64,000 nucleotides of DNA from Candidatus Omnitrophota bacterium (GCA_044225175.1 JBGAJA010000001.1:134994-198993); one strand, 5' to 3'. Positions 1 to 42,289 are shown, counted from the stretch's first letter. Numbers and translations: made by a program. The notes: generated by a model from the sequence alone, not told the origin.

Positions 1-1953
1 CATTTTTGTGCTGGAACTTTAGGCTGGCCGTATATTAAGAAGGATGTAAATTTTTCTGAGTTCTTCTTGCTTATATCGACTCATTTTTTGGCTGTCATAC
101 GAATGGTTATTCTATGTCTATGGGAAAACAAACTAGCATCAATGGATTTTATGTATGGGCTTTTCAAGAAAGAAAATGTCTTAGTTGAGCTAAAATTTGT
201 ACCTTTGCGTGTTTTAATTTGTATCCTTCTGCGCGAATTAATCACCCTTGGTGCCGTCATGGATACCATTCGAGGCCTGCCAATTATCCATCTTAATTAT
301 TTAGGATATGATGAACAAGCTCATCGGCGTAGTCCAGACTCCCAAACAGCCCATTGGGCATTAAAAGGAATAGATAAGTCTATCGCTAGAATTTATTCTG
401 CTGCGATCAAGTCATCTCGACGGCACTATGATGTCTGGGTTTATTCAGACCATGGGCAGGAAGCTACAATTCCTTATGTTGGTTTGTATGGAAAAACTGT
501 GGAAGAAGCTGTCGCTCAAGTCTTTCATGGCCTGTTTGATCCGAAAATAAAAGAAACTAGCAAATTCAATTCAGCAAAGAAAACACATGAGAGTATTCAG
601 CTGCAAAGGGCCCGTTATCTAGGTCAATGGGTTAGAAAAATAGGGATTTTGGATCAAGGACCAGATTTAGCTTTGGATGCTGATTTGGTTACAACTGCGA
701 TGGGACCTTTAGGAGGGATCTATGTATTTAAAGAATTGACGGCCGAGGAACGATTGCGTTTTGCTAAAGAGTTAGTGCGCACAGCCAAGATTCCATTGGT
801 TCTGATGCAGCAAGAAGAGGGCAAGGTGCTGGCATGGACTAATCAAGGTCAATTTAATCTGCCAGAGCAAGCCCGTGACGTTATAGGCGCTGATCATCCT
901 TTTTTTGAAGATATCCTCAAAGATCTTATTGCATTATGCCATCATCCTAATGCTGGAACTTTAACAATTTCTGGATGGCGGCCAAATGAAAAACCCTTGA
1001 GTTTTCCTTTTGAGAATGGGGCTCACGCGGGTCCAGGAAGACTAGAGACAAACGCGTTTGCGTTACTGCCAGCCAATGTTAAATTACGTTCTTACGAACG
1101 CACATATTTTAGAACTAAAGATTTGCGTGAATCTGCCTTGCGATTGTTGAAACGAACACCTGAATCTCATTTAAGTGCTTCTTCAAAAATCATTGTTCCA
1201 AATACGTCTCATCCATCGAAAACCATCCGAATCATGACCTACAATGTTCATGGTTGTAAAGGCTTAGATGGCAAGGTTTCTCCTGAGAGAATTGCCAAAG
1301 TGATTGGACGCTATGAACCGGATATCGTGGTGCTTCAAGAACTAGATATGGGGCGCAAGCGTTCTGGAAAAATGGACCAACCGCATGTGATTGCTAAAGA
1401 ATTAGAGATGATGTACCACTTTCATCCTGCCATTCACGTTGAAGAAGAACGATATGGTAATGCCATACTTAGCCGTTATCCCATGGATTTAATCCATGCA
1501 GCCGTATTGCCCCCTTTAAAAAATAGATTTAATTGCGAACCGCGTGGGGCTATGTGGGCTTCAGTCAAGGTAGGAGATGTTCATCTACAAGTCATTAACA
1601 CACATTTAAGTTTTCATAGCCATGAGGGATGGCATCAAGCGAATGCTTTAATGGGTGATGAGTGGACAGCGCATCCCCATTGTCAGGGGCCAGTTGTTCT
1701 TTGTGGAGATTTTAATTGTCTACCAAATTCTGCCACATGGCGTACAATTAATGGTAAATTTCAAGACGTTCAACGGATATTAGATAATCACCGTCCAAAG
1801 GCAACATGGTTTGGACATTATCCGATAGGGCGCATTGATCATGTTTTTATAAGTCCAGATATAAAGGTTTCTGCCATTGATGTTCCTAGGACTAAATTAA
1901 ATAAAATATCGTCGGATCATTTACCATTAATTGTAGATTTGGAGGTGTTTTAA
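1..1953 (+). CDS. 5-prime partial CDS (open to window start); alkaline-phosphatase-like/type I phosphodiesterase N-terminal region fused to an endonuclease/exonuclease/phosphatase (EEP) C-terminal domain
   Basis: Frame is open from nt 1 (no stop before the first Met at 67). SDHGQ motif is typical of the AP-superfamily phosphodiesterase core. C-terminal MTYNVHGC...VLQELD...SDHLPL pattern matches the EEP fold. Stop overlaps the start of the next gene. Confidence 0.5.
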   Translation, partial: HFCAGTLGWPYIKKDVNFSEFFLLISTHFLAVIRMVILCLWENKLASMDFMYGLFKKENVLVELKFVPLRVLICILLRELITLGAVMDTIRGLPIIHLNYLGYDEQAHRRSPDSQTAHWALKGIDKSIARIYSAAIKSSRRHYDVWVYSDHGQEATIPYVGLYGKTVEEAVAQVFHGLFDPKIKETSKFNSAKKTHESIQLQRARYLGQWVRKIGILDQGPDLALDADLVTTAMGPLGGIYVFKELTAEERLRFAKELVRTAKIPLVLMQQEEGKVLAWTNQGQFNLPEQARDVIGADHPFFEDILKDLIALCHHPNAGTLTISGWRPNEKPLSFPFENGAHAGPGRLETNAFALLPANVKLRSYERTYFRTKDLRESALRLLKRTPESHLSASSKIIVPNTSHPSKTIRIMTYNVHGCKGLDGKVSPERIAKVIGRYEPDIVVLQELDMGRKRSGKMDQPHVIAKELEMMYHFHPAIHVEEERYGNAILSRYPMDLIHAAVLPPLKNRFNCEPRGAMWASVKVGDVHLQVINTHLSFHSHEGWHQANALMGDEWTAHPHCQGPVVLCGDFNCLPNSATWRTINGKFQDVQRILDNHRPKATWFGHYPIGRIDHVFISPDIKVSAIDVPRTKLNKISSDHLPLIVDLEVF

Positions 1954-2615
1954 TGGGTGAACATTTTAAAGGTGATCAAAAGCATTTGGATCATGTTTTA
2001 CTTCAAAATGAAAAAAGACTTCTTAATTTTCTACTTCCTTTTGTTCCGTCTTGGATCAGCACTGTCCATTTAACATTGATGACTATTGTGTGGGCTTCTC
2101 TTATTGTTTTGTTTGGCTATTTGGCTAATACAAACATCATTTGGTTGCTTGGCTTCAATGCGTGCATATTTCTTCAATATGTGACAGATATGTTAGATGG
2201 GGCAGTAGGTCGTCAAAGAAATGAGGGGTTGATTAAATGGGGTTTTTATATGGACCATTTTCTTGATTATGTGTTTTTATGTTCAATCATTATCGGATAC
2301 TCATTTTTATTACCTTCATCTTATTTATTTTTAGTTTTATCTTGTTTAGCCATAACAGGTGGTTTTATGGTCCATGTTTTAATGGATTTTGCTATCACAA
2401 GTGATTTTAAAATCAGTTTCAATCATTTTGGTGTATCAGAAGTTCGAATTCTTTTGATTCTTTTTAATTTTTCTTTAATTTATTTAGGTAAAATGTTTTT
2501 TGTTCAAGTTTTTCCATGGGTTGTCTTATGTTCTCTACTTGCTTTAGTTGTTATGGTCTATCAATCTCAAAAAATATACGCAAGTATAGACATGCAGGAA
2601 AAGAAAAATAGTTAA
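1953..2615 (+). CDS. CDP-alcohol phosphatidyltransferase family membrane protein
   Basis: Polytopic membrane protein with DMLDGAVGRQRNEGLIKWGFYMDHFLD, resembling the D-G-x2-A-R...G-x3-D-x3-D signature. Translationally coupled to the upstream phosphodiesterase. Confidence 0.5.
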   Translation: MGEHFKGDQKHLDHVLLQNEKRLLNFLLPFVPSWISTVHLTLMTIVWASLIVLFGYLANTNIIWLLGFNACIFLQYVTDMLDGAVGRQRNEGLIKWGFYMDHFLDYVFLCSIIIGYSFLLPSSYLFLVLSCLAITGGFMVHVLMDFAITSDFKISFNHFGVSEVRILLILFNFSLIYLGKMFFVQVFPWVVLCSLLALVVMVYQSQKIYASIDMQEKKNS

Positions 2616-2632
2616 TCTAAGAAAGGACACTT

Positions 2633-2869
2633 ATGATTTTTTCAGAAGAAGAAATTTTGGCCATCCTAAAAAAAGAATTACCTGAAGTTAATGGTAAAAA
2701 CTTGGAAGATGTTGCCGGTTCTATTATTCGTTCAGGGAAACATTGGCAGGAAGTTGATTTGGACGAACATGTCCATGATGATGTCAAAATGCAGGTGCTT
2801 CATGATCTGTGCAAACCTACAAATAATAATGAGCCGCCCAAAGATGTTCGTTTATTTTTTAAAAAATAA
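2633..2869 (+). CDS. small acidic hypothetical protein (78 aa)
   Basis: ORF with SD-like AAGGA upstream and plausible composition. No family recognised. Confidence 0.3.
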   Translation: MIFSEEEILAILKKELPEVNGKNLEDVAGSIIRSGKHWQEVDLDEHVHDDVKMQVLHDLCKPTNNNEPPKDVRLFFKK

Positions 2870-2922
2870 AAAAACGTCAAAGCCATGGCATTGCCAGATC
2901 AACAAATTCCCAATAGAACCAT

Positions 2923-4323
2923 ATGAAAATCCAATTCTTAGGCGCTGCTTCGAATGTCACAGGATCTCGTTTCTTATTGGAAACTGACGATAAAGTTATT
3001 CTGATTGATTGCGGTTTATATCAAGAGCGGAATTTATTGGAAAGAAATTGGCAGAAGTTTCCCTTTAATCCATTTAAGATTGACGCTGTCATATTGACCC
3101 ACGCCCACATCGATCATTGCGGCTATTTACCGAAACTGATCAAAGAAGGGTATCGAGGGAAGATCTATTGCACCCCACCTACGGCCGAGATAGCCAAGGT
3201 TGCCTTGCTTGATTCGGCTAACATTCAAGAAGCTGATAGTGAATATAAGAGAAAACGTCATGCCAAAGAAGGAAGAAGGGGCCCTCATCCTGAAACACCT
3301 CTTTATACAGCTGATGATGCCAAAAAAGTGTTCCCTCATTTTCATCATATCCAATATGAAAAACCAATTGATCTAGGGAAGAATTTAACAGCGACATTTT
3401 ATGATGCAGGACATATCTTGGGTGCTGCGATGATCCAAATGGAATATCGAGAGAATAATACTACAAAGAAAATTGTTTTTTCAGGTGATATAGGAAGATG
3501 GAATAGACCCATTTTAAAAGACCCGCATCTTTTTAATGATGCAGATTATGTAATCATGGAGGGTACCTATGGGGATCGGTTTCATAGTGATGATGCCAGT
3601 TGTTTGAATGATTTGGAGAAGGTGATCAATAGAACCTATCAAAAGGGTGGGAATATTGTTATTCCAAGCTTTGCGATAGGAAGAACCCAGGAACTTTTAT
3701 ATGATTTGAACCTTCTTCTGAAAGCTAAAAAAATCCCTTCTATTTCAACTTTTGTTGATAGTCCAATGGCAATGGAGATTACAGAAATAGTTAAGTTTTA
3801 TTCTGATTATTTCGATACAGAGGCCCGTGAAATATTACGTCAAGGTTTGGAATTATTTGATTTTCCTTTATTGAAATTTACTGCAACTCCCAATGAATCA
3901 AAGGCCATCAATCACATTCAAGGAACATCCATTATTATGGCCGGAGGAGGGATGTGTACAGGAGGAAGAATTAAACATCACCTGGCTCTTAATCTACCCA
4001 GGCCAGAAAGCACTATTCTTTTTGTTGGATATCAAGCGCTTGGTACTTTAGGCAGAATCATATTAGAGAAACCCGAGGAAGTAAGACTTTTTGGAAAGAA
4101 TCTGAAGGTTAAGGCTAGCATTGAACATATCAATGGATTCTCAGCCCATGCGGATCAAAGAGAATTATTGAAATGGTTGAGCGCTTTTAAGAAACAGCCG
4201 CAAAAAGTCTTTATTGTCCATTCCGAGCAGAAAGCCGCAGAGGCTTTAAAGAACGAGATTCAAAAAACAATGTCCACAGAAGTACATATTCCTTCCTACC
4301 AAGAACAATTTATTTTTTCCTGA
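2923..4323 (+). CDS. MBL-fold beta-CASP RNA-metabolising hydrolase (RNase J-like)
   Basis: HAHIDHCGYLP (HxHxDH) metallo-beta-lactamase motif. beta-CASP-like C-terminal region with the conserved late His. Confidence 0.75.
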   Translation: MKIQFLGAASNVTGSRFLLETDDKVILIDCGLYQERNLLERNWQKFPFNPFKIDAVILTHAHIDHCGYLPKLIKEGYRGKIYCTPPTAEIAKVALLDSANIQEADSEYKRKRHAKEGRRGPHPETPLYTADDAKKVFPHFHHIQYEKPIDLGKNLTATFYDAGHILGAAMIQMEYRENNTTKKIVFSGDIGRWNRPILKDPHLFNDADYVIMEGTYGDRFHSDDASCLNDLEKVINRTYQKGGNIVIPSFAIGRTQELLYDLNLLLKAKKIPSISTFVDSPMAMEITEIVKFYSDYFDTEAREILRQGLELFDFPLLKFTATPNESKAINHIQGTSIIMAGGGMCTGGRIKHHLALNLPRPESTILFVGYQALGTLGRIILEKPEEVRLFGKNLKVKASIEHINGFSAHADQRELLKWLSAFKKQPQKVFIVHSEQKAAEALKNEIQKTMSTEVHIPSYQEQFIFS

Positions 4324-4428
4324 TGCCATAGTTTTGTTTGATGAATTAAGGGAATTGTATATAATCCTACATATTCAAAATATAAGAGAGAACGAAATAG
4401 GGGTACATCCCTTATTATTAGGTTAAAC

Positions 4429-5133
4429 GTGAAGAAAATTTCGAAATCAAACGGTATCAAATCATGGCCATTAGATGACAGGCCAAGAGAGAAATTGCTT
4501 AAAAAAGGTGCAGGCACTTTGAGCAACTCCGAACTCTTGGCTATTTTATTACGCACCGGCACAGCAGGCACCAGCGCCGTTGAACTTTCCCGCAAAATCC
4601 TTGGCAAATTCGGCTCCTTTAGGAGTATGGCCCATACCGACATCCGTGATTGGAAGGAATTCAAAGGTTTAGGCGGGGCTAAGATGGCTCACATTCAGGC
4701 CGCACTTGAAATCGGGCGGCGTTATCAACAGGACGTTGTGTTGTCTCCGGGCAAGCAGAAGATCGCTTCCGCCAAGGACATCGTTGATCTTGTTTTACCC
4801 CACATGCGCGATCTTAAAACCGAAGTCTTTAAAGTTATCTATCTTGATAACAATAACCGAATCATCGATATTACCGACGCCGCCATTGGAACGGTAGACC
4901 ATGCCTTTCCCATCATTCGCGAAATAATCCACAGCGCCTTACAGAAATTCGCCAAGTCGATTGTTTGTGTGCATAACCATCCAAGTGGCGAAACTGCCCC
5001 TAGTGTGCAGGATAAGAAATTTACCAAAGAAATAAATGATGCCGCGCGATTGATGGAAATTAAAGTGTTGGATCACATTATTATTGGTGGGGATAAGTAT
5101 TTTAGTTTTGCCGACGAAGGGCTTATATGTTGA
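4429..5133 (+). CDS. radC: RadC-like JAB/MPN (JAMM) domain protein
   Basis: N-terminal helix-hairpin-helix-like region (LSNSELLAILLRTGT). C-terminal JAMM motif HNHPSG. Stop overlaps the start of the SNF2 gene. Confidence 0.8.
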   Translation: MKKISKSNGIKSWPLDDRPREKLLKKGAGTLSNSELLAILLRTGTAGTSAVELSRKILGKFGSFRSMAHTDIRDWKEFKGLGGAKMAHIQAALEIGRRYQQDVVLSPGKQKIASAKDIVDLVLPHMRDLKTEVFKVIYLDNNNRIIDITDAAIGTVDHAFPIIREIIHSALQKFAKSIVCVHNHPSGETAPSVQDKKFTKEINDAARLMEIKVLDHIIIGGDKYFSFADEGLIC

Positions 5134-8009
5134 CAGATTACCACGCAAAATATTTTGCCTATGAGCTCACTAAACGGTGCGCATCCGATAGTTTAGAGAA
5201 GCTATCAGCAACTCTTTCTAATGCTCAGGTCGATTTAAATCCTCACCAAATTGAAGCCGCGCTTTTTGCCTTTCGTTCACCTCTCTCTAAAGGAGCTATT
5301 CTTGCTGATGAAGTTGGTTTAGGTAAAACAATTGAAGCTGGTATTGTTATTTCCCAAAAGTGGGCAGAGCGGCAGAGAAAGATTCTGATCATTGTTCCAG
5401 CGAATTTAAGAAAACAATGGAATGAAGAATTGTTGGATAAGTTTTTTATCCCGTCGATTATTCTTGAAAAGAAATCGTTCAATGAAGAAATCAAGAAAGG
5501 AAATTTAAATCCTTTAAACCAAAAGGATTTGGTTGTTATTTGTTCCTATCATTTTGCTAAATCCAAAGATGTTTATATTAAACAGGCTGGATTCGATTTA
5601 GTGATCATCGATGAAGCGCATCGTTTACGAAATGTTTATAAGGAATCGAATAAAATTGCCAACGCGATTAAAAATTGTTTGAAAGACTTTCCCAAAATTC
5701 TTTTAACCGCAACACCGCTTCAAAACTCGCTTGTTGAGCTTTATGGTTTAGTCAGCATTGTTGATGAGCAGGTCTTTGGTGATTTAGAAAGTTTCAAAGC
5801 ACAATATTGCCATAGTGAACCTCCGAATTATGCAGAATTAAAGGAGCGAATCAAGCCAGTATGTCTTCGGACGCTAAGAAGGCAAGTGTTGGAATATATC
5901 AAGTACACCAATCGTATTGCTATTACCCAAGAATTTTATCCCAAAAAAGAAGAGCAGGATTTGTATAACCTTGTTACCGATTATCTTCAACGAGACAGAC
6001 TTTATGCTCTTCCCAAAGCTCAACGACACTTGATGACGTTGATATTAAGAAAGCTTTTAGCATCGTCCACCTATGCTATTGCTGGCACATTATTGGGTTT
6101 AGCTCGCAAATTAGAATTTCTACTTAAGAATCAGGATAGGCCAGAGGTTGTCGAGGAAATCTTGGCTCAAGATTATGAAACCTATGAGGAAACCAAGGAT
6201 GAATGGCTTGATGATGAAGAAGGTGATGAAGATGAGAAGGATGAAGCTCCACAAACAAAATTAACCGAAGAGGATATTAACAATATTAATGAAGAAATCG
6301 GCTTATTGAAACAAATGCATGAATTAGCGAAATCGATACATAAGAACTCTAAAGGAGAGGTCTTATTAAAAGCTTTGCAGAAAGGGTTTGAAGAAGCTCA
6401 GAATAAGGGAGCATTAAAGAAAGCCATTATTTTTACAGAATCTACCCGAACACAAAGCTATATCCTTGAAATTTTAAGTCAAACGGAATATACGGGCAAG
6501 ATTGTCCTTTTTAATGGAAACAATAATAGTCCGCATGCGAGAGAGATTCTTAAGAAATGGACAGAACGGAATAAAGATACAGATCGAATCACCGATTCTT
6601 CAACTGCCAATATGAGAGCGGCCTTGGTTGATTATTTTCGTAATGAAGGTGTCATTATGATTGCGACTGAAGCTGCCGCTGAGGGCATCAATCTTCAATT
6701 TTGCTCTTTAATTGTTAATTATGACCTTCCTTGGAATCCACAACGCATCGAACAGCGCATAGGCCGCTGTCACCGATATGGCCAAAAGCACGATGTTGTT
6801 GTAGTTAATTTTCTCAATAAAAAGAACGCCGCAGATGTTCGGGTTTATGAATTATTGGAAAAGAAATTCCAGCTTTTTAGCGGTGTATTCGGGGCCAGTG
6901 ATGAAGTCTTAGGCGCTTTGGAGTCCGGTGTTGATTTCGAACGCCGTATTGCCGAGATTTATCAAAATTGCCGAACTGAAGCACAGATTCAAATCTCATT
7001 TGACCAGCTTCAAAAAGATTTGGAAGAAAATATATCAGAGAAAATCACCCAAACAAAACAACGTCTTTTGGAAAGTTTTGATGAGGAAGTTGCTGAAAAA
7101 CTAAGAATAAATTCGATTAAGAGTAATGAGTACAAAGACAAATATGAAAAGTGGCTTTGGGATTTAACGCAATATTTTTTACAACCTTACGCAAAGTTTG
7201 ACCAAGATAATTATTCTTTTGTGCTCGTCGATAATCCATTCCCATCTGAAAAAATTGATCCAGGCCCATACAGAATTGGCAAAAATGTTGATGATGCGCA
7301 TGTTTATAGGGTGGGTCATCCCTTAGCGCAGAAAGTCATTAGCCAATTTAAAAGCAAAGAATTGCCAGCAGTGGAAGTGTGCTTTGACTATGAGAATTCT
7401 GGAAAAAAAATTTCGATATTAGAAGGATTGATTAGCAAGGCGGGATGGCTTACTGTTTATAACTTCACAATCCAGTCTTTTGAAGAAGAGGATCATGTTG
7501 TGTTATGTGGTTTAACTGATGACGGGCAGGAGCTTAATGCAGATCAATGCCGAAGATTATTTTCACTTCCCGGTAGTGTGATAGCTGAAGCGATAACGCC
7601 GGACGGAATTAACAAAAGGATTGCTGAAATTGTGGGCAAACGAAAAGCAATGATTCTGGACACCAATATGCACCGCAACTCAGGATTTTTTGATAAGGAA
7701 ATAGATAAGCTTGACAAGTGGGCAGAAGATAAACGCAATTCATTAAAGCTATCTTTAAAAGATCTTGATGAAGAGATTAAAGAGTTAAAAAAGACAGCTA
7801 AACAAGCGCAGAGTTTGCCTGATAAGTTAGCCGCACAAAAGAAAGTAAAAGCATTAGAGAAAAAGCGAGATGAAGCATGGCGTGAGTACGATGCTACAGG
7901 TCGAAAGATTGAAGAAGAAAAAGATAAGCTTATAGAAACAATTGAACAAAAACTTTCTGCTAAAGAATGCTTAGGGGAAGTTTTTTCAATCCGCTGGAAG
8001 GTTGTTTGA
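5127..8009 (+). CDS. SNF2-family (SF2) ATPase/helicase with C-terminal coiled-coil domain
   Basis: Walker A GLGKT, DEAH box (DEAHRLRN), LLTATPLQN (SNF2 motif III), helicase C motifs (QRIGRCHRYGQ). About 300 aa non-helicase C-terminal extension with coiled coil. Overlaps the radC stop. Confidence 0.8.
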   Translation: MLTDYHAKYFAYELTKRCASDSLEKLSATLSNAQVDLNPHQIEAALFAFRSPLSKGAILADEVGLGKTIEAGIVISQKWAERQRKILIIVPANLRKQWNEELLDKFFIPSIILEKKSFNEEIKKGNLNPLNQKDLVVICSYHFAKSKDVYIKQAGFDLVIIDEAHRLRNVYKESNKIANAIKNCLKDFPKILLTATPLQNSLVELYGLVSIVDEQVFGDLESFKAQYCHSEPPNYAELKERIKPVCLRTLRRQVLEYIKYTNRIAITQEFYPKKEEQDLYNLVTDYLQRDRLYALPKAQRHLMTLILRKLLASSTYAIAGTLLGLARKLEFLLKNQDRPEVVEEILAQDYETYEETKDEWLDDEEGDEDEKDEAPQTKLTEEDINNINEEIGLLKQMHELAKSIHKNSKGEVLLKALQKGFEEAQNKGALKKAIIFTESTRTQSYILEILSQTEYTGKIVLFNGNNNSPHAREILKKWTERNKDTDRITDSSTANMRAALVDYFRNEGVIMIATEAAAEGINLQFCSLIVNYDLPWNPQRIEQRIGRCHRYGQKHDVVVVNFLNKKNAADVRVYELLEKKFQLFSGVFGASDEVLGALESGVDFERRIAEIYQNCRTEAQIQISFDQLQKDLEENISEKITQTKQRLLESFDEEVAEKLRINSIKSNEYKDKYEKWLWDLTQYFLQPYAKFDQDNYSFVLVDNPFPSEKIDPGPYRIGKNVDDAHVYRVGHPLAQKVISQFKSKELPAVEVCFDYENSGKKISILEGLISKAGWLTVYNFTIQSFEEEDHVVLCGLTDDGQELNADQCRRLFSLPGSVIAEAITPDGINKRIAEIVGKRKAMILDTNMHRNSGFFDKEIDKLDKWAEDKRNSLKLSLKDLDEEIKELKKTAKQAQSLPDKLAAQKKVKALEKKRDEAWREYDATGRKIEEEKDKLIETIEQKLSAKECLGEVFSIRWKVV

Positions 8010-8032
8010 TTTAAATGATAAGGAGATCGTAA

Positions 8033-9871
8033 ATGGAAGAACCGAAGAAAATGGATTTGCGCTCAATCGATATGACCGCAGAGCATAAAGCTAAATTAAT
8101 GCAGATTTTCCCGCATGTATTTAATGAGGACAAGATTGATTTTGAACGTCTCAAGCAAACACTTGGTGAAGATATTGATTCGGGCTTGGAGCGCTTTGGT
8201 TTGACATGGCCGGGGAAATCTGAATGCATGAAGATCATTCAGCAACCAAGCATTGGGACCTTAAAGCCATGTAAAGAGGAGTCGGTTAATTTTGATACGA
8301 CTGAAAATATTTTTATTGAAGGCGATAATCTGGAGGTATTAAAGCTTTTGCAGAAGTCCTATTATGGCAAGGTTAAGATGATCTATATCGACCCGCCCTA
8401 CAATACAGGAAAAGAATTTATTTACCCTGACAAGTATTCTGAAACTTTGGAAACATATCTTGCTTATACTGGGCAAGTTGACTCTGAAGGAAAAAAGTTT
8501 TCGACAAATACGGAGGCTGACGGGCGGTTTCATTCGAAGTGGCTTAATATGATGTTTCCACGTATATTTTTTGCGCGTAATTTATTAAAGGAAGATGGGG
8601 TAATTTTCATAAGTATTGATGATCATGAAGTTGATAATTTAAGAAAGTTATGCAGTGAGGTTTTTGGAGAAGAGAATTTTATTGCACAAATATGTCATAA
8701 GGCAAGAGCTTCAGTCTCAAACGACAAAATAATATCAAGCAATCATAACCATGTTCTTCTTTACGCAAAGAATGCACAAGAGATTCATGAAAAAAGGCAT
8801 TTATTTGGTTTAGATCCAGAGTTAGAAGGTTTTGATAAAAAGGATGATGTGGATTTTTATAAATTGGTACCAGTTGATGGGCCTGGAGGGGCTGCGAAAG
8901 GTAATCCATATTATGAATTTTTGGGTATAAAACAGTATTTCAGGTTTTCTTTAGAAACAATGAAAAGGAAATATGATGAAGGCCGCATTGTAAAAGTTGG
9001 CAATGGTATTCAGCAGAAACTTTATTTGAGTGAAGCTAAAAATACTAGAAAAACCGATACAACTTGGTGGGATGAAAAATTGTATACTTCTACAGCAACT
9101 GCAAGGCTTAGTGAGCTTATGGGGGGCGATTATTTTGACAACCCAAAACCAGTAGAGTTGATTCAAAGAATGCTTAGGTTATGGTCTAGAGATCAAACTG
9201 ATATTATCTTGGATTTTTTTGCAGGATCAGGCACTACCGCACAAGCTGTTATCGAATTAAATAAATCTGATGGGATAAATCGTAATTTTATTTTGATCCA
9301 ACTTCCAGAATTGTGTACACAAGATACGGAAGCCTTTAAGGCGGGTTATAAAACTATTGCTAGCATTACTAAAGAACGTATTAGGCGGGTTATTAAGAAA
9401 ATTCAAGAAGAATCAAAAAGCCAGTTGGATTTTAAGAATAGCAAAATTGATTTAGGTTTTAAAGTTTTCAAGCTCGACCAGTCGAACTTTAAGATTTGGG
9501 ATGGGGTCATCGATCAAGCTACAGATGGTAAGAGAATTGAGAAACAGCTTGAGCTTCAGATTGAACATATCAATCCCAAGGCAACGGAAGATGAAATCTT
9601 ATATGAGTTGTTGCTGAAGTCCGGGTTTGCATTAACGACCAAGGTGGAAGTTTTGCAAATGGCTGGGAAAAAGGTCTATTCCATTGAGAATGGGGCATTG
9701 TTGATTTGTTTGGATAAGAATTTAACCAAAGAAGTCATAACAGAAATGGCGCGTAAAGAGCCGGCCCGTGTGATATGCCTCGATTCTGGCTTTAGCGGGA
9801 ATGATCAATTAAAAACCAATGCAGTTCAGATCATGAAGTCACATAAAGTAGAAGATTTTCGAACGGTTTAA
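8033..9871 (+). CDS. mod: Type III restriction-modification Mod subunit (N6-adenine DNA methyltransferase, beta class)
   Basis: Motif IV DPPY (IYIDPPYNTG) precedes motif I (FFAGSGTT), the beta-class order typical of Type III Mod. N-terminus resembles annotated Type III Mod proteins. Confidence 0.8.
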   Translation: MEEPKKMDLRSIDMTAEHKAKLMQIFPHVFNEDKIDFERLKQTLGEDIDSGLERFGLTWPGKSECMKIIQQPSIGTLKPCKEESVNFDTTENIFIEGDNLEVLKLLQKSYYGKVKMIYIDPPYNTGKEFIYPDKYSETLETYLAYTGQVDSEGKKFSTNTEADGRFHSKWLNMMFPRIFFARNLLKEDGVIFISIDDHEVDNLRKLCSEVFGEENFIAQICHKARASVSNDKIISSNHNHVLLYAKNAQEIHEKRHLFGLDPELEGFDKKDDVDFYKLVPVDGPGGAAKGNPYYEFLGIKQYFRFSLETMKRKYDEGRIVKVGNGIQQKLYLSEAKNTRKTDTTWWDEKLYTSTATARLSELMGGDYFDNPKPVELIQRMLRLWSRDQTDIILDFFAGSGTTAQAVIELNKSDGINRNFILIQLPELCTQDTEAFKAGYKTIASITKERIRRVIKKIQEESKSQLDFKNSKIDLGFKVFKLDQSNFKIWDGVIDQATDGKRIEKQLELQIEHINPKATEDEILYELLLKSGFALTTKVEVLQMAGKKVYSIENGALLICLDKNLTKEVITEMARKEPARVICLDSGFSGNDQLKTNAVQIMKSHKVEDFRTV

Positions 9872-9873
9872 TT

Positions 9874-12774
9874 ATGAAATTTAAATTTGATGCTAATCAA
9901 CAATATCAACTAGACGCTGTGAATGCAGTAGTCGAGCTTTTTAAAGGGCAGCGTGAGAACCGCGGAGCCTATGAGATCAGTTTTCGCAAAGAGACTCAGT
10001 TTATGGGGCAATCCATGACTCAGAAAACGCTTGGTTTGGGGAATAATTTGGATATTGATGACGCTATTCTGCAAGATAATCTCACCTTAGTTCAAAAGAA
10101 TAACAGTATTTTTCAAGAAGCCTCAATTCATTCTAGAGGGCGGAATTTCTCTATTGAGATGGAAACAGGGACGGGTAAGACCTATGTTTATCTGCGAATG
10201 CTTTTTGAATTGAATAAAGTTTATGGTTTTAAGAAATTTATCATTGTTGTGCCATCGGTGGCCATCCGTGAAGGGGTTTTGAAATCTATTGAGATGATGG
10301 AGTCGCATTTTCGTGAGCTTTATAACAATGTGCCTTTTGATAAATTCCTTTATGATTCCAAAGATGTTGCCAAGCTTCGAGGGTTTGCCACAAGCAATGA
10401 AATGCAATTGATGATTATTAATATCGATTCATTCAACAAAAAATCTATCAACATCATTTATGACTATCGCGACCAGATGAGCGGCTATAAGCCGATTGAA
10501 TTTGTGCAGGCAACAAATCCTATTGTCATTATGGATGAGCCACAGAATATGGAAAGTGATAAGGCCAAAGAAGCCATTGCCTCTCTAAATCCGTTATGTA
10601 CGTTACGTTATTCTGCAACACATCGGGATAAGTACAATCTCATTTATCAATTAGATCCGATTAAAGCCTTCCAGATGCGCTTGGTTAAGAAGATATCAGT
10701 GAATTCCGTCACAGCTGAAAGCGATCCCACGCAAACATATCTAAGGGTGGAAGAAATCAAGAATCAAAGAGGCAGTTTTAAGGTCAAGCTTTCCTATTTT
10801 GAGCAAACTAAAGATGGGGTTCAAAAGAAAAGTAAGCAGTTTAAACAGCACGATGATCTTTTTGTGGCTTCTAAAGAATATGAGCCATATCGCAATGGAT
10901 TTGTTATTGATGAAATAAATGCGCGCCCGGGGATGGAGTTTGTGCGGTTTGCTAATGGAATTAGGCTGGGACTTGGGGAAGAGCAGGGAGGCAACCGAGA
11001 CGATATTGTAAAGAAGCAAATTAAAGAGACGATCAAAGCTCATTTTGAAAAAGAATATCAGGTCAAGGATATGGGTATCAAGGTATTGTCCTTATTCTTT
11101 TTGGATCGTGTTGAAAATTACCGTATTCATAAAAAAGATAGTTATGAATTAGGGAAATATGCCCAGTGGTTTGAAGAAATTTATACCAAGCTAGGGCAAG
11201 AATACCAAACATTGTTTAAGCAAGATGTTATGCCCGCTGATAAAGTCCACAATGGTTATTTTGCCAAAGATAAAAAGGGTGATTATAAGAATACATCGGG
11301 TGATACCAAGGATGATGAGGATACATATTCCCTGATCATGCAGGATAAAGAAAAACTTTTGGATCTATCTAATTCCTTGAAGTTTATTTTTTCGCATTCG
11401 GCTCTTCGTGAAGGATGGGACAATCCAAATGTTTTTCAAATCTGTAATTTGAGAGAAATGGGAACTGCTACGGAACGCAGGCAAACAATTGGACGAGGGT
11501 TGCGTTTGCCAGTGTCAGCATTAACAGGTGAACGGGTTCGTGATGAATATGTAAATAATTTAGTCGTGGTATGCACGGAATCTTTTAAAGACTTTGTGGA
11601 AGGTCTACAGAAAGAATTAGAAGACGATTGTGGCGTTGTTTTTGGTCGTTTGCCAATTGAAGCGTTTGTGGGGATTGATTTTAAGCAGTATGGCATGGAC
11701 AAGCTTGATAAAGAGTCATCCCAAGAGATTTGGAATCACCTTAAGAAAGACAAAGTGATCGCGGATGATGGGTTAATCTTATCGGCCTTTAAGGAAAAGG
11801 TCGATGCTCATACTTTTTCTGTTCCCGAAAAATACAAAGAAGTCACGAATGATATTATTCGCGCCATTGAGCAGTATCAAATGGAGCGCCATATCGAGGA
11901 TCATAATAAGAAGGTTAGAGTAAAGGTTAATGAAAAAGTTCTTTTAGATCCTGAATTTGAGAAATTCTGGAAGGCCATTAATACCAAAACAATTTATTCG
12001 GTCAAATACTCAACAGATGAGCTTATTGACAATGCTGTGCATGCGATATCCAAGATACCTAGGGTAGAACCATTGAGATTGCGCTCTGTTCTGGTTGGTC
12101 TTGATATTGATCAACGTGGGGTTACGGCTACCATGGAAAAGACTCCAGATGTGGAATATTCCAGTAAAGCTGTTCAACTGCCCGACATTTTATCTTATGT
12201 GCAAAGCAAGGTTGAACTAACACGCAGTACTATTTTTCAGATTTTAAAGAAATCCAGCCGATTGGATGAGTTTTCTATCAATCCCCAGCAATTTATGGAT
12301 GCTGTTGTTAAGGAAATCCGAGATGTACTTCACCGAATGGTGATTGAAGGAATTCAGTATGAAAAGCTTGATGAAATATCTTATGAGATGTCTTTATTCC
12401 GTGTAGATGAGCACAAAATGATGTTTGCGCAGGATAGAGTGGTGCCCACACAAAAGTCAGTCTATGACTATATTTTATGGGAATCAGGGGTAGAAAAGCG
12501 ATTTGCTGAAGGATTGGAAGGTTTAAAGAATATCAAATATTTTATTAAATTGCCCAGCTGGTTCAAAATTGAAACGCCTATTGGTACATATAATCCCGAT
12601 TGGGCAATTTTGAAGGAAAACGGCAAGATTGTCTATATGGTTCGAGAAACCAAGGCAACGAAGGAACAATTGAAACTGCGCTTACCCGAAGTAGACAAAA
12701 TCGAATGCGGCCGCCAGCATTTTCTCGCAATTGGCGTGAATTATGATGTTGCCACTTCGGTTGAAGAATTATGA
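9874..12774 (+). CDS. res: Type III restriction enzyme Res subunit (SF2 helicase plus PD-(D/E)xK nuclease)
   Basis: N-terminus MKFKFD...QLDAVNAVVELF is typical of Res. Walker A TGTGKT, DExx box IMDEPQN, C-terminal PD...ETK nuclease motif. Starts 3 nt after the mod stop. Confidence 0.8.
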   Translation: MKFKFDANQQYQLDAVNAVVELFKGQRENRGAYEISFRKETQFMGQSMTQKTLGLGNNLDIDDAILQDNLTLVQKNNSIFQEASIHSRGRNFSIEMETGTGKTYVYLRMLFELNKVYGFKKFIIVVPSVAIREGVLKSIEMMESHFRELYNNVPFDKFLYDSKDVAKLRGFATSNEMQLMIINIDSFNKKSINIIYDYRDQMSGYKPIEFVQATNPIVIMDEPQNMESDKAKEAIASLNPLCTLRYSATHRDKYNLIYQLDPIKAFQMRLVKKISVNSVTAESDPTQTYLRVEEIKNQRGSFKVKLSYFEQTKDGVQKKSKQFKQHDDLFVASKEYEPYRNGFVIDEINARPGMEFVRFANGIRLGLGEEQGGNRDDIVKKQIKETIKAHFEKEYQVKDMGIKVLSLFFLDRVENYRIHKKDSYELGKYAQWFEEIYTKLGQEYQTLFKQDVMPADKVHNGYFAKDKKGDYKNTSGDTKDDEDTYSLIMQDKEKLLDLSNSLKFIFSHSALREGWDNPNVFQICNLREMGTATERRQTIGRGLRLPVSALTGERVRDEYVNNLVVVCTESFKDFVEGLQKELEDDCGVVFGRLPIEAFVGIDFKQYGMDKLDKESSQEIWNHLKKDKVIADDGLILSAFKEKVDAHTFSVPEKYKEVTNDIIRAIEQYQMERHIEDHNKKVRVKVNEKVLLDPEFEKFWKAINTKTIYSVKYSTDELIDNAVHAISKIPRVEPLRLRSVLVGLDIDQRGVTATMEKTPDVEYSSKAVQLPDILSYVQSKVELTRSTIFQILKKSSRLDEFSINPQQFMDAVVKEIRDVLHRMVIEGIQYEKLDEISYEMSLFRVDEHKMMFAQDRVVPTQKSVYDYILWESGVEKRFAEGLEGLKNIKYFIKLPSWFKIETPIGTYNPDWAILKENGKIVYMVRETKATKEQLKLRLPEVDKIECGRQHFLAIGVNYDVATSVEEL

Positions 12775-12808
12775 AAAACCTAACGCCACTTAAAAGCACA
12801 TTAATATC

Positions 12809-13957
12809 ATGACCCGAGGCATTTTAATAGAAATTAACCCACAGCTCTTAAGATATGCTAGAGAGAGGGTTGGTTTGAATATTGAAGAAGCTGAAGCGCA
12901 TTCTGGTGTAGGCGATTTAGCTGTTCTAGAAAAGTCCGGGGGATATCTAAATTTATCCAATCTACGACAGCTCTCAAGTCTTTACAAAAGAGCTATTCCA
13001 TTCTTCTTATTGCCTGAGACTCCTAAAGAAAAACCAATACCAACAGAATTGAGAACAATTGCATCCCAAAGAAATGTTCATTTTTCATATGAAACTTGGT
13101 TAGCATTTAATAGAGGGTTGGATATACAAGCTATTGCTAAAGAATTGGCTGACAATATCGGCTATAAGAATAAATTGAACTTTAAATATATTAACTTAGA
13201 AAATGATCCGGAAAACGAAGCTCTAAATTTTAGAAAACATATAAAGCTGACTTTAGAAATACAAAGGAAATGGAAGAATTCTAGCGCTGCGTATACAGAA
13301 TTAAGAAAAATGATTGAAGAGATAGGTATCCTCACAGCTCAATGGCCTTTTCCATTTGAAGAAGCGAGAGGTTTTGCTATTAATGATCTAGAATTTCCAA
13401 TGATTATGGTTAATAGTAAAGACTGGCTTAATGGTCAGATATTTACTCTCTGTCATGAGCTCGCTCATATCTTGCTTAATCATAGTGGAGTTGTTCAAAA
13501 TGATCTCACCTTAACTTCCCGCCATAGAACAATAGAATCATTCTGTAATCATTTCGCTGGCGCGGTACTTGTTCCTAAGAAGGCCTTACTTGACAAATTA
13601 CCCTCAGATATTAATTTTGAGAAGGAGGAAGACGATTCAAAACTGCAAAGGTTGGCAACTTTCTTTCGTGTAAGTAAAGAAGCTATTCTTAGAAGGCTTG
13701 TAATTTTAGAGATAGTAAAACAAGATTTCTACAAGACCAAAAGAGCCCAGTGGGAAGTAGAATTCAAAAAATTATCTCCTCGCAAGATATTTGCTTCGGA
13801 CCCAGCTAAGCAATGCCTTACAAGAAACGGAAAGAAAGTCCTCGAATTAGGCTTTAAGAATTATAATTCCGGTAAAATCGGTGATTACGACTTTGGCTCT
13901 TATTTTAATGTTAAAGCTAAACATATTTCTAATATTGAACATATTTACCATTCATGA
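12809..13957 (+). CDS. XRE-family HTH fused to ImmA/IrrE-type zinc metallopeptidase domain
   Basis: N-terminal HTH_XRE-like segment. HEXXH (CHELAHILLNH) in the C-terminal half, typical of ImmA/IrrE (COG2856) peptidases. Confidence 0.7.
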   Translation: MTRGILIEINPQLLRYARERVGLNIEEAEAHSGVGDLAVLEKSGGYLNLSNLRQLSSLYKRAIPFFLLPETPKEKPIPTELRTIASQRNVHFSYETWLAFNRGLDIQAIAKELADNIGYKNKLNFKYINLENDPENEALNFRKHIKLTLEIQRKWKNSSAAYTELRKMIEEIGILTAQWPFPFEEARGFAINDLEFPMIMVNSKDWLNGQIFTLCHELAHILLNHSGVVQNDLTLTSRHRTIESFCNHFAGAVLVPKKALLDKLPSDINFEKEEDDSKLQRLATFFRVSKEAILRRLVILEIVKQDFYKTKRAQWEVEFKKLSPRKIFASDPAKQCLTRNGKKVLELGFKNYNSGKIGDYDFGSYFNVKAKHISNIEHIYHS

Positions 13958-14397
13958 AGAAATATTGTTTTGATACCTCAAGTTATATTCAATTTAAGCG
14001 ATATTACCCGCAAATACATCCAAAATTTAAAGATGACTGGACAAAATTCGAAGCAATGATTGACAAGGGATTAATTGTTTCCCCAAATGAAGTATTCGAA
14101 GAAATTGAAGAAGGTGGAGATGGGCTTTTTGATTGGATAAGAACCAGAAAAGATAAGATATTTGTTCTGCCAGATACGGCGATTTTTCAAAAGATGGGAG
14201 ATTTACTTAAAACTCATCCTGAATTACATGACATAAAAAAGAAGAGACATGATGCCGATCCATATGTAGTAGCTTTTGCTTCCTTAAATGGTGCAATTGT
14301 GGTTGCAGAAGAAAAGAAAATAAGGCTAATTTGTGAGAAATATAAAATAAAATCTATAAGTTTATTGGAATTCTTTAATGAATGTGACTTTCAATAA
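13954..14397 (+). CDS. PIN-like DUF4411-family protein (candidate toxin partner of the ImmA-like gene)
   Basis: 147 aa. N-terminal CFDTSSYI acidic motif fits a PIN-like fold. Start overlaps the ImmA-like stop, the pairing usually seen for DUF4411 genes. Family assignment is from memory, not a search. Confidence 0.45.
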   Translation: MKKYCFDTSSYIQFKRYYPQIHPKFKDDWTKFEAMIDKGLIVSPNEVFEEIEEGGDGLFDWIRTRKDKIFVLPDTAIFQKMGDLLKTHPELHDIKKKRHDADPYVVAFASLNGAIVVAEEKKIRLICEKYKIKSISLLEFFNECDFQ

Positions 14398-14436
14398 AGA
14401 ATAGGGACGCACCCCTAGTATTAAGGATAGGTAATC

Positions 14437-15096
14437 ATGGACAAAACCTTTTGGCATCACAAGTGGGAGGCAGGTGATACTGCGTTTCACCAAGATCAAG
14501 TTAATCCTGCTTTATGTAAATATTTCGATCAACTGAAAGTTAATAAAGGTGCGCGTATTCTTGTTCCTCTATGCGGTAAAACCTCAGATATAGCGTGGCT
14601 TTTATCGCAAGGGTATCAGGTGGTCGGGGTTGAATTAAGCCAAAAGGCCATTGATCAATTATTTGAAAACCTTGGAACTAAACCAATGATCAACCGTTTG
14701 GGTGCGTTTGAGCATTATCATGCTGAAAATATAGATATTTTGATAGGGGATTTCTTTCAGGTATCCAAAGGGATACTAGGCCATGTGGACGCCGTTTATG
14801 ATCGAGCCGCTTTGGTTGCTTTGCCTTATGAAATGCGAGAAAAATATACCAAACATTTATCGAGCATCTCAAATCAGGTGCCTCAATTACTGATTTGCTA
14901 TGAGTATGATCAGCGTTTACAAGAAGGCCCGCCTTTTTCAGTAAATAAAGAGGAAGTGAAGCGGCATTACAGCAATTTGTTTGAATTAACATTGCTTGAA
15001 ACGATAGACATTCCAGGCGGGCTTAAAGGTAAATGTGCTGCTCAAGAGGATGTGTGGTTGTTAAAAGCAAGAACAGGTAAGCAGAAAAATGTTTAA
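14437..15096 (+). CDS. tpm: thiopurine S-methyltransferase
   Basis: N-terminus FWHHKWEAGDTAFHQDQVNPALCKYF matches the TPMT family signature. SAM-binding class I MTase core. Confidence 0.8.
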   Translation: MDKTFWHHKWEAGDTAFHQDQVNPALCKYFDQLKVNKGARILVPLCGKTSDIAWLLSQGYQVVGVELSQKAIDQLFENLGTKPMINRLGAFEHYHAENIDILIGDFFQVSKGILGHVDAVYDRAALVALPYEMREKYTKHLSSISNQVPQLLICYEYDQRLQEGPPFSVNKEEVKRHYSNLFELTLLETIDIPGGLKGKCAAQEDVWLLKARTGKQKNV

Positions 15097-15223
15097 CGCA
15101 GCTGTAGTTTGTGGTAAAAAGTAGGTCAACGGTTTCCCAAATCGTTTGATATATAGCAGGGCGCCTTTCCCCGGGTGCAGAGAAATAAAATCCAAATTAA
15201 CCTGACTCTTCAAGGAGGGGAAA

Positions 15224-16060
15224 ATGAATCTTCAGAAAATCAACGGTCAAAAATCAGTGTTCGAAAGTATTAAACAGCAATCACCAGAAGGTCAAGAATT
15301 TTGGTTAGCTAGAGAGTTTCAGAATATTTTGGATTATAAAGAATGGCGTAAGTTTTCTAACGTTATAGAAAAAGCAAAAGAAGCTTGTATCAATTCAGGT
15401 TACAAGATAAGTGACCATTTCGTCCATATGGACAAAATGGTCCAAATTGGATCTAAAACTCATAGAGTTGTATCCGATATCAGGCTGTCTAGATATGCCT
15501 GCTATTTAATCGTTCAAAACGCTGATCCGTCCAAACCTATCGTTGCATTAGGGCAAACCTATTTTGCGGTACAAACACGCAAACAGGAAATCATGGAGCG
15601 GGAGGATTATGCGAATTTAAGATCAGAAGATGAAAAACGTTTATTTTTACGTAATCAATTAAAGGTTAATAATAAGAAATTAGCAGGTGCTGCCAAAGAA
15701 GCAGGTGTCATTACAGCCTTGGATTATGCTATTTTTCAAGATCATGGATATAAAGGGCTTTACGGTGGTTTAGGAGCTAAAGATTTGCATGAACGTAAAC
15801 GATTGAAGAAAAGTCAGGAAATATTGGATCATATGGGCAGCACAGAGTTAGCAGCCAATCTATTTAGAGCAACTCAGACGGAAGAAAAGATCAAGCGTGA
15901 GCAAATTAAGGGTAAGATTAAAGCTAATGTTACGCATTATGAAGTAGGACAAAAAGTTCGCCAGACCATTAAGGAATTGGGCGGTACTATGCCTGAACAG
16001 TTGCCCGCCTCAGATAATATTAAAGTAGTTAAGAAGAAGCTATTAAAAGTTCGAAGGTAG
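15224..16060 (+). CDS. dinD: DNA damage-inducible protein D
   Basis: Long collinear similarity to E. coli DinD (LSRYACYLIVQNADPSKP..., GQTYFAVQTRKQE, DEKRLFLRNQLK, LDHMGSTELAANLFRATQTEEK). Confidence 0.85.
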   Translation: MNLQKINGQKSVFESIKQQSPEGQEFWLAREFQNILDYKEWRKFSNVIEKAKEACINSGYKISDHFVHMDKMVQIGSKTHRVVSDIRLSRYACYLIVQNADPSKPIVALGQTYFAVQTRKQEIMEREDYANLRSEDEKRLFLRNQLKVNNKKLAGAAKEAGVITALDYAIFQDHGYKGLYGGLGAKDLHERKRLKKSQEILDHMGSTELAANLFRATQTEEKIKREQIKGKIKANVTHYEVGQKVRQTIKELGGTMPEQLPASDNIKVVKKKLLKVRR

Positions 16061-16061
16061 A

Positions 16062-16340
16062 ATGAAGAAAGAAAAAGGTGCGCCAATGAATCAGGAAAAT
16101 TCTAAAATGGATAAAGATACCTTACGGACAGTTTTGGCTAATGAACGTACAATGCTGGCGTATGTTCGCACTGCATTGTCGGCGGTTATTTTCGGCATGG
16201 CGATATTGAAGTTCTTTTATGAGTCTGCTTTTTTGGTTGTTATCGGCTGGGTGGCGGTTATTAGCGGGATCTATGTTTTTGTACGGGGAATGTTGGAGTA
16301 TGCCATGCGTAATCGAACCATCCGAAACATGAATGATTAA
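16062..16340 (+). CDS. yidH: DUF202/YidH-family small inner-membrane protein
   Basis: ERTMLAYVRTALS motif followed by two TM helices, typical of DUF202. Confidence 0.6.
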   Translation: MKKEKGAPMNQENSKMDKDTLRTVLANERTMLAYVRTALSAVIFGMAILKFFYESAFLVVIGWVAVISGIYVFVRGMLEYAMRNRTIRNMND

Positions 16341-16463
16341 ATAATCAGGACACGATGAATTTCTAAAAGAGTAATTCCGGCAATTGTTGGGGTGGGATTA
16401 CATTTAACAAAGGCAGTGATTTTGTAGTAGCGATGTTGATAGGCATGGCGTTGGCTAAATTCC

Positions 16464-16494
16464 TCCGTATTACCACGTAGTTTCTTACGTATTT
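16464..16494 (+). promoter_or_regulatory. Direct-repeat array GTATT-N5-GTAGT-N7-GTATT (10 and 12 bp centre spacing), about 29 nt upstream of a TACAAT -10-like box; candidate activator site (copy A)
   Basis: Same array and spacing recur at 20548-20574 and 22190-22226. The adjacent conserved block GAATTTATTT and the downstream AATTAAAGCATGTT are also shared. Confidence 0.4.
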
Positions 16495-16536
16495 CATCGA
16501 ATTTATTTCCTTCCTAGCTCCAGCTACAATTAAAGC

Positions 16537-16947: not shown

Positions 16948-16949
16948 TT

Positions 16950-42219: not shown

Positions 42220-42289
42220 TTATTTTTGAGATTTGAAATTAGAGATTGGATTATCCAATTTCGAATTTCTAATATCAAATTTCTATAAT

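Follow-up and report, generated by a model that had tools for sequence, protein, structure and literature searches.

A mobile gene cassette of Candidatus Omnitrophota that probably encodes a restriction-modification system of Type III with an accessory SNF2 ATPase

We analysed a stretch of 64,000 nucleotides (nt) from a Candidatus Omnitrophota bacterium (GCA_044225175.1, JBGAJA010000001.1:134994-198993), here referred to as the window, in which four consecutive genes on the plus strand encode a RadC protein, an SNF2 ATPase and the methyltransferase (Mod) and restriction (Res) subunits of a restriction-modification (R-M) system of Type III (coordinates in Table 1). An initial annotation, made from the sequence alone, had described the four genes as tightly coupled, and the open reading frames (ORFs) and their spacing agreed with this description. 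The radC and SNF2 genes overlap by 7 nt, with the SNF2 ATG lying within the radC stop region (ATGTTGA, in the context ...ATATGTTGA...); the 23-nt spacer between the SNF2 gene and mod holds an AAGGAG ribosome-binding site; and mod, which is located directly 5' of res, ends at 9871, leaving a gap of 2 nt before the res start at 9874. No convincing terminator was found between any of the four cassette genes. We consider it likely that this cassette is a mobile Type III R-M system of a subclass that carries a third conserved gene, encoding a RapA/DrmD-like SNF2 protein, 5' of mod, and to which a translationally coupled RadC/JAB gene has recently been added. The identity of the core as a Type III R-M system with an accessory SNF2 protein is very probable.

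Type III enzymes are textbook two-subunit machines. Within Mod, a PF01555 (N6_N4_Mtase) domain was identified in which DPPY120 precedes FAGSG396, the motif order of the beta class. The best PADLOC matches of Mod were the MTase_III models (670 bits), and among solved structures it matched 6K0W, a Mod-type adenine methyltransferase, with an expectation (E) value of 7e-77, followed by the Mod subunit of EcoP15I (4ZCF_A; E 1e-59). The protein had initially been taken for a beta-class N6-adenine methyltransferase; the class was borne out by the motif order, whereas N6-methyladenine and N4-methylcytosine (m4C) as products cannot be told apart in the Mod sequence, since Type III Mods of this class can make m4C as well (PMC8259958). 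Res contains the Pfam families ResIII and RE_endonuc (PF19778, amino acids (aa) 860-961) and the motifs GTGKT99 and QTIGRGLR537, and matched the PADLOC model REase_III (961 bits) as well as EcoP15I Res (4ZCF; E 2e-60). Together with the PD-(D/E)xK motif (P908-D909...E925-x-K927), these matches upheld the earlier view of Res as a bona fide Type III subunit. By these sequence features, Mod and Res form a genuine Type III pair of the EcoP15I kind.

The third protein combines the Pfam domains SNF2-rel_dom and Helicase_C with a C-terminal module, for which an AlphaFold model of residues 680-960 (predicted local distance difference test score 88) placed two coiled-coil helices at 826-893 and 897-942, forming a hairpin of about 115 residues. 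In a comparison with the folds in the PDB, this module gave no significant match (best E 0.046). The initial annotation had called the C-terminal coiled coil unique; the model supports the coiled coil with confidence, but it is not unique, since it is kept across the whole family, in 52 aligned homologues and in an E. coli protein with 42% identity. The best named relatives of the SNF2 protein were DrmD models (PADLOC PDLC02619, 714 bits; NCBIfam DrmD_b, NF038318, 713 bits), and its closest solved relative was RapA (hmmsearch E 1e-47; Foldseek E 4e-18 over the full length). Orthology to RapA was considered and rejected, as the PRK04914 model scored 176 bits against a cut-off of 576 and its match began at RapA position 137. 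Only about 28 residues precede the ATPase core, and the N-terminal Tudor domains, which bind RNA polymerase in RapA, are lacking. Scans with Pfam, NCBIfam and PADLOC detected no nuclease family in the SNF2 protein; a degenerate nuclease-like fold of the kind proposed for RapA and BrxHII (PMC12839542) may nonetheless be present. Fusions of SNF2-family proteins with Mod or Res, which would hint at a physical contact, were looked for and not found; the only fusions detected were to unrelated modules (UvrD with PD-ExK; HATPase with a STAS-like domain).

SNF2 homologues numbered more than 8000 in a large protein collection. Nearly all of the 120 homologues listed were full length with at least 60% identity, and the few with a named source span several phyla; among the matches listed, the best source-named one (90%) came from a Candidatus Omnitrophota metagenome-assembled genome. 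At least 585 stretches in GTDB species representatives encode an SNF2 relative. All-against-all clustering of the ORFs from 80 GTDB loci yielded only three conserved clusters, namely SNF2 (78), Mod (57 loci) and Res (54 loci), and wherever these clusters occurred, the order SNF2, Mod, Res on one strand was constant. Linkage was counted over these 80 GTDB loci, 80 IMG/VR loci and the contexts of close relatives, using three Mod/Res flavours as queries. A full-length SNF2-family gene followed by at least 7.5 kb was present in 91 loci, and Mod-like and Res-like genes were located downstream on the same strand in 89 of them; the other two were the most distant members, at 38% identity. The SNF2-Mod-Res arrangement is far beyond chance. 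The initial annotation had staked its reading on SNF2 homologues being linked to mod/res in other genomes, and near-obligate linkage is what we observed. In 46 loci, the distances between SNF2 proteins tracked those between Res proteins (Mantel r 0.63) and those between Mod proteins (Mantel r 0.58), both with p <= 0.0005. Between Mod/Res flavours, identity in the same loci was 57% for SNF2, 28% for Mod and 17% for Res. On plasmids the linkage was one-sided, Res homologues occurring on 271 and the SNF2 family on only 50, so that SNF2 needs Mod-Res, while Mod-Res does not need SNF2.

This arrangement is not new, since Murray et al. 2021 reported an extra helicase-like ATPase gene 5' of mod that was tied to mod/res in more than 500 genomes and whose role they stated as unknown (PMC8259958). 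The initial annotation, which had not seen the arrangement described as a unit, was therefore wrong with respect to SNF2-mod-res. According to the same study, the extra ATPase has superfamily 2 (SF2) helicase motifs and no nuclease motif and is dispensable for methylation; partially purified Eco86II cut DNA, with no peptides of the extra ATPase found in the preparation; and Eco86II (E. coli NCTC86) and BspHIV (Acinetobacter sp. H) both make m4C (PMC8259958). Among the papers surveyed on SNF2 with Type III or DISARM systems, this was the only description of an SNF2-mod-res unit. The SNF2 gene of the window lies 23 nt upstream of mod, just as the extra ATPase gene lies 5' of mod, and E. coli genomes carry the window's SNF2 family in exactly that position; NCTC86 was not among the E. 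coli matches listed. Another, distantly related SNF2-like 'helicase-related protein' of about 1085 aa, with 26% identity over the core, is followed by DUF4391 and is also found 5' of Type III mod-res (Table 1). As both families occupy the same position, the published extra-ATPase class may include either. The window is one more case of the reported Type III subclass, and its recent RadC is a lineage addition. DUF4391 itself was almost absent from the literature searched, with two papers mentioning it.

A block of 8.3 kb (window 4444-12777) is shared with a relative of 90% identity (L083) at about 80% nucleotide identity, while the flanks are unrelated. Identity amounted to 81.5% for radC, 79.9% for the SNF2 gene and 82.3% for res, with the flanks at background level, so that the four genes are a real coupled unit, as had been proposed. 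Only the central part of mod (Table 1) lacked a nucleotide match within the shared block; at the protein level, Mod was 71% identical between the two loci, compared to 90-91% for SNF2 and Res. In L083, the block is preceded by a primase-polymerase, an integrase and an HTH_3 gene and followed by CBASS-like genes. Cassettes of relatives adjoin integrases or serine recombinases, and members of the family are carried by conjugative plasmids (IncFIB and IncFII), by plasmids of Salmonella and Klebsiella and by the E. coli strains O104:H4, E24377A and 042. In O104:H4, the cassette is situated within an island at tRNA-Phe; this allele occurs in 74 complete genomes, and local DNA similarity to an E. 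coli family member was detected in 253 of 5426 genomes. A search for near-identical DNA on plasmids returned only short methylase-motif matches. The cassette is horizontally mobile and has moved as a unit.

The GC content of the cassette (0.385) showed no anomaly with respect to the rest of the window (0.372), and neither a tRNA near the cassette nor flanking direct repeats were found as island borders. Tandem repeats as a sign of phase variation were absent from the window, and no Rfam family matched within window positions 1-20000. Promoter-like sites in the cassette region did not exceed the number expected by chance; the best one on the plus strand (Table 1) falls outside the block shared with L083.

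RadC is a full-length protein with the domains PF04002 (JAB) and PF20582 (UPF0758_N) and a score of 234 bits against the NCBIfam cut-off of 180 (NF000642). Its HxHx7Sx2D JAB metal motif is intact (HNHPSGETAPSVQD from aa 182). The gene is co-inherited with SNF2-mod-res in L083 and in a relative of 92% identity (L089), where the RadC C-terminus likewise overlaps the SNF2 gene by 7 nt, and this holds for relatives of at least 90% identity only. In the contexts of 79-83% relatives, RadC was absent; most of them have a 59-62-aa HTH_17 (helix-turn-helix, HTH) gene instead, with an overlap of 4 nt between its stop and the SNF2 start, and the nucleotide block that they have in common with the window begins where SNF2 starts. 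Of the 80 GTDB loci, L058 alone has an adjacent same-strand RadC, which is 29% identical and located 127 nt upstream. As RadC is confined to relatives of at least 90% identity and absent at 79-83%, it is a recent, lineage-specific add-on rather than a conserved member of the system, and it is most likely a passenger or late accessory and not a core part. The initial annotation had envisaged a Type III R-M system augmented by an SNF2 ATPase and a JAB-domain protein; the linkage counts sustain the former addition, whereas the latter, L058 aside, did not hold as a conserved part.

A different view would make RadC a functional fourth part, such as a JAB protein that acts together with SNF2 in nucleic-acid processing or in a nuclease-like way. 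This is suggested by the 7-nt overlap, which sits exactly at the natural RadC C-terminus, by the position of radC inside the co-transferred block at an identity (81.5%) similar to that of the SNF2 gene and res (80-82%), by the repetition of the arrangement in L083 and L089, and by the independent case in L058; moreover, a role in nucleic-acid processing has been proposed for RadC, and fusions of it with helicases occur in conjugative elements (PMC5512222). We nevertheless regard such a role as rather unlikely, given the absence of RadC from all relatives with 83% identity or less and from about 98% of the family loci, with no neighbouring same-strand radC in 78 of 80 GTDB loci, and the lack of any PADLOC model matching it. 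RadC-like JAB genes are, furthermore, common in the backbones of cassette-bearing mobile elements; in E. coli F9792, for instance, yeeS lies 3 kb upstream, and a Cronobacter element offers a further case.

The Mod subunits of EcoP15I act as a dimer, which binds a short asymmetric recognition site and methylates one of its strands. On an unmodified site, the Mod2Res complex is switched by Res ATP hydrolysis to a state in which it slides on DNA, and cutting occurs upon meeting a second complex at an inversely oriented unmodified site. The Mod2Res complex of the window would be expected to work in the same way, with site binding, an ATP-driven switch, sliding and two-site cutting. SNF2 could then be an accessory motor, dependent on Mod-Res, that translocates on or remodels double-stranded DNA and has its effect in vivo only, where it might strip RNA polymerase, stalled Mod-Res complexes or protective phage proteins from the DNA and so let long-range communication and enzyme turnover proceed. 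A RapA-like removal of bound proteins or spent Mod-Res complexes from DNA is the role that we favour, though only tentatively, and several points weigh against it or against other parts of the reading that we prefer. The remodelling or recycling role is drawn from the homology to RapA, and the SNF2 protein lacks the very Tudor domains by which RapA contacts RNA polymerase. SNF2 is far more conserved than its partners, which fits poorly with an intimate, co-adapting interface and would be unexpected if it docked to them directly. The coupling and co-transfer of radC argue that RadC may be more than a passenger. Finally, that the ATPases of Eco86II and BspHIV belong to the window's SNF2 family is something we infer, and not from their sequences.

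DrmD being the nearest named family of the SNF2 protein, the relation to DISARM had to be considered. Class 1 DISARM, in the work of Ofir et al. from 2018, reportedly consists of DrmD, DrmMI, DrmA, DrmB and DrmC. The PADLOC definition of DISARM type I requires all five genes (PMC9252829), and DrmMI is an N6-adenine methylase of pfam13659 (bioRxiv 2021.12.28.474362). In the window proteins scanned, we found no DrmA (pfam00271; NCBIfam DrmAS/DrmAL) and no match to DrmB (DUF1998) or DrmC (PLD), the latter two absences being those already recorded in the initial annotation. Using a true DrmA as tblastn query, none of the 91 family loci gave a match; DrmA was found in DrmD_b loci only. The SNF2 protein stayed below the NCBIfam cut-offs for DrmD (NF038318, 713 against 950 bits and covering aa 29-678 only; NF038317, 259 against 610 bits), as did all family members tested, plasmid-borne ones included, with 530-715 bits on DrmD_b. 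A true DrmD_b protein (P0258), by comparison, reached 1318 bits; it is 40% identical to the window's SNF2 core and differs in the C-terminal alpha+beta region. The methylase is a PF01555 Type III Mod and not a pfam13659 DrmMI. Of the defence-system models, Mod and Res matched MTase_III and REase_III instead. Membership in DISARM was rejected on the missing DrmA, DrmB and DrmC, the sub-cut-off SNF2 and the type of methylase.

In the true DrmD_b loci (L137-L143, from IMG/VR), Mod-like and Res-like genes are present that share homology with their counterparts in flavour-B cassettes, together with DrmA. For this reason, the evolutionary relationship between SNF2-mod-res and DISARM is real, so that from the DISARM-like variant proposed initially the evolutionary link persists, while membership does not. 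In one such locus (L139:5276-20681), which was examined over its whole length, a serine recombinase, a WYL regulator and a C5-methylase are followed by DrmD_b (1301 bits), then by a PF01555 methylase resembling Mod, a helicase of the ResIII family and DrmA (1250 bits), and neither DUF1998 nor PLD genes were found in the vicinity; tblastn recovered the same Mod-like, Res-like and DrmA genes after a DrmD_b-like SNF2 gene in L137, L138, L142 and L143. No true DrmD_b was detected on plasmids, where all matches were to the R-M-linked family. We found no description of this DISARM-like architecture of true DrmD_b loci in the literature surveyed.

On a bolder reading, SNF2-Mod-Res would be an ancestral core that gave rise to DrmD_b-type DISARM by gain of DrmA, and possibly to other SNF2-methylase systems. 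The SNF2 motor would alter Type III action in vivo, where it might make a two-site cutter limited by diffusion able to clear protein roadblocks or to resist anti-restriction proteins, or might recycle spent complexes; in this lineage the translationally coupled RadC/JAB protein would contribute a step of nucleic-acid processing, and the system would truly have four components. In its entirety, we hold this scenario to be improbable.

Less probable still is a minimal DISARM variant, in which SNF2 would be DrmD, Mod the equivalent of DrmMI and Res a replacement for DrmA, with a mechanism unlike two-site Type III cleavage. The two DrmD models as best SNF2 matches, the 40% identity to true DrmD_b over the ATPase core and the homologous Mod-like and Res-like genes preceding DrmA in L137-L143 are consistent with it. 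Against it stand the five-gene definition, the absence of DrmA, DrmB and DrmC from the window and of DrmA from all 91 family loci, the position of every family member tested below the DrmD cut-offs, and the membership of the methylase in PF01555 rather than pfam13659; Mod and Res bear every hallmark of Type III, and Eco86II is able to cut in vitro in the absence of the ATPase.

We give equally little credence to the idea that SNF2 and its upstream neighbour (RadC here, an HTH gene elsewhere) are not involved in restriction but govern how the system is established or expressed, for instance through a RapA-like timing of res expression after transfer in the manner of a C protein. Such a function would fit the location of SNF2 at the operon's 5' end, a place in which small genes of the HTH_17 or XRE type with overlapping stops also occur, the action of RapA, its closest solved relative, on RNA polymerase, the dispensability of the ATPase for methylation and in vitro cleavage (PMC8259958), and the frequent mobility of the cassette. 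However, an ATPase of 960 aa that is kept at 55-65% identity across phyla would be an expensive regulator, it has about 28 aa before its core and none of the RapA Tudor domains, the upstream HTH gene is present in only about 12 of 87 loci, and homologous SNF2 proteins of ARMADA are needed for defence itself. A mere chance neighbourhood, with SNF2 and radC as independent housekeeping or defence-island genes beside a Type III system, is scarcely credible and, for SNF2, already refuted by the 89 of 91 loci. In its favour, RadC is of the full-length 'housekeeping' type (NF000642 above cut-off), the GC content matches that of the window and the surroundings form a small defence island (an M78-DUF4411 pair and DinD/PDC-S13), but SNF2-Mod-Res order and strand are kept across many phyla even with genes inserted in between, the distances between SNF2 and its partners correlate, and the block was transferred as a unit.

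Table 1 Features of the cassette (positions in the window, counted from its first nucleotide) and loci of the second SNF2-like family
Feature	Position	Strand	Description
radC	4429-5133	+	234 aa, GTG start
SNF2 gene	5127-8009	+	960 aa, RapA/DrmD-like ATPase, the third conserved gene, located 5' of mod
SNF2 ATPase core (about aa 28-680)	5208-7166	+	Walker A GLGKT64, DEAH162 and motif VI QRIGRCHRYGQ543, all intact
SNF2 C-terminal module	7191-8006	+	alpha+beta domain aa 689-821, antiparallel coiled-coil hairpin aa 826-942, terminal beta hairpin aa 946-959
mod	8033-9871	+	612 aa, Type III beta-class DNA methyltransferase
mod variable central region	8692-9278	+	presumed target-recognition domain; blastn match between window and L083 breaks there
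res	9874-12774	+	966 aa, Type III restriction subunit
Res PD-(D/E)xK catalytic motif	12595-12654	+	P908-D909...E925-T-K927, inside the PF19778 match
Best plus-strand promoter-like site	4338-4365	+	TTGATG-16-TATAAT, upstream of radC; consensus match only
Second-family loci	L173:1062-9943; L174:744-9991; L175:978-11003		on plasmids of Bacillus cereus, Enterococcus faecium and the archaeon Methanomethylovorans hollandica

Outside the cassette, most genes of the window are ordinary ones of metabolism or of the envelope (glycosyltransferases, a P-type ATPase, trehalose enzymes, DsbD), and a cluster of three tRNAs (Thr-TGT, Tyr-GTA, Gly-TCC) lies far from the cassette at 42147-42512. Directly upstream of the cassette (2923-4323), a beta-CASP metallo-beta-lactamase nuclease is encoded whose best NCBIfam match was Cas14 of type VII CRISPR, at 424 bits against a cut-off of 800; no CRISPR array was found in the window. 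Directly after res (12809-14397) come two genes that overlap by 4 nt, one for an M78/ImmA-type peptidase of 382 aa that has an HTH region at its N-terminus and one for a DUF4411 protein of 147 aa. The two form a toxin-antitoxin-like pair, and the M78 protein weakly matched PADLOC RmrA and the NCBIfam spr1629 antitoxin. The small island further contains a thiopurine S-methyltransferase gene (TPMT, above the NCBIfam cut-off; 14437-15096), with a weak match of 55 bits to PADLOC MADS mad2, and a gene for DinD (DNA damage-inducible protein D; 15224-16060), which matched the PADLOC candidate system PDC-S13 (392 bits). DinD recurs beside or inside cassettes of unrelated genomes (L059:12968-13738, L107:8420-9145, L176:19343-20167); in L059 it lies between SNF2 and mod, and in E. 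coli STEC639 it follows res. Two large ORFs at 16950-19172 (740 aa) and 36484-40554 (1356 aa) did not match any Pfam or PADLOC model.

SNF2-Mod-Res operons also serve as insertion sites for other defence-type genes, which often enter between SNF2 and mod or between mod and res while the outer genes stay in place. These passengers include RhuM, an OLD-family nuclease, GmrSD with AlbA_2, YhcG/DUF1016, DUF3800, DUF2130 and M78-HTH homologues; examples, among the loci L001-L135 and beyond, are L019:12993-14036, L074:8709-10688 and L177:10388-13765. A Salmonella plasmid carries an Abi gene with IS256 as insert, and in E. coli O104:H4 an AAA ATPase and an S8 peptidase are inserted. A similar set of passengers is embedded in Type I hsd operons.

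Type III R-M is the textbook case of a two-subunit enzyme, yet a large and widely transferred subclass keeps a third, highly conserved SNF2 motor. The presence of the family on conjugative plasmids of Salmonella and Klebsiella and in E. coli O104:H4, E24377A and 042 makes it genetically tractable. Through the DrmD_b loci, Type III R-M is linked to DISARM, and the cassette offers a three-gene model for SNF2 function in DISARM, BREX-3 and ARMADA.

With class 1 DISARM and the DrmD_b loci, the cassette has in common an SNF2 ATPase of the same RapA-like clade beside an amino-methyltransferase; it differs in the absence of DrmA, DrmB and DrmC, in the C-terminal alpha+beta domain of SNF2, in a methylase outside the DrmMI family and in a Res subunit with its own nuclease. 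In BREX-3, ARMADA and DISARM-1, a RapA-like SNF2 gene is likewise paired with a DNA methyltransferase gene (PMC12839542, PMC12458937), and in ARMADA the Walker motifs of the related SNF2 protein, which is paired with a methylase, are required for defence. Compared to the systems of BrxHII (BREX type 3) and ArmA (ARMADA), however, the methylase partner in the window is a Type III Mod and not PglX-like, and the cassette has no BREX, YprA or DUF499 partners. Assignment to a BREX-related (DUF499) or ARMADA system was rejected, as none of their partner genes is present. RapA is the closest relative, in structure and in sequence, among solved proteins; compared to RapA, BrxHII and ArmA, the window's SNF2 protein has a C-terminal domain with a coiled-coil hairpin that finds no significant match in the PDB. 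The operons with the helicase-related protein encode a Res of the same subfamily (38-41% identical to that of the window) and sometimes have a small HTH gene upstream, but their ATPase belongs to another family and is always followed by DUF4391, which the window lacks. EcoP15I and EcoPI share the beta-class Mod with its central target-recognition region, the location of mod directly upstream of res and a Res that combines an SF2 ATPase with a C-terminal PD-(D/E)xK nuclease; these classical systems are described as having two genes, and no SNF2 or RadC partner is named for them in PMC8259958. With Eco86II and BspHIV, finally, the cassette shares the co-orientation of the SF2 ATPase gene, mod and res, the location of the extra gene immediately 5' of mod and the association in hundreds of genomes, and it differs from them in adding a coupled radC.

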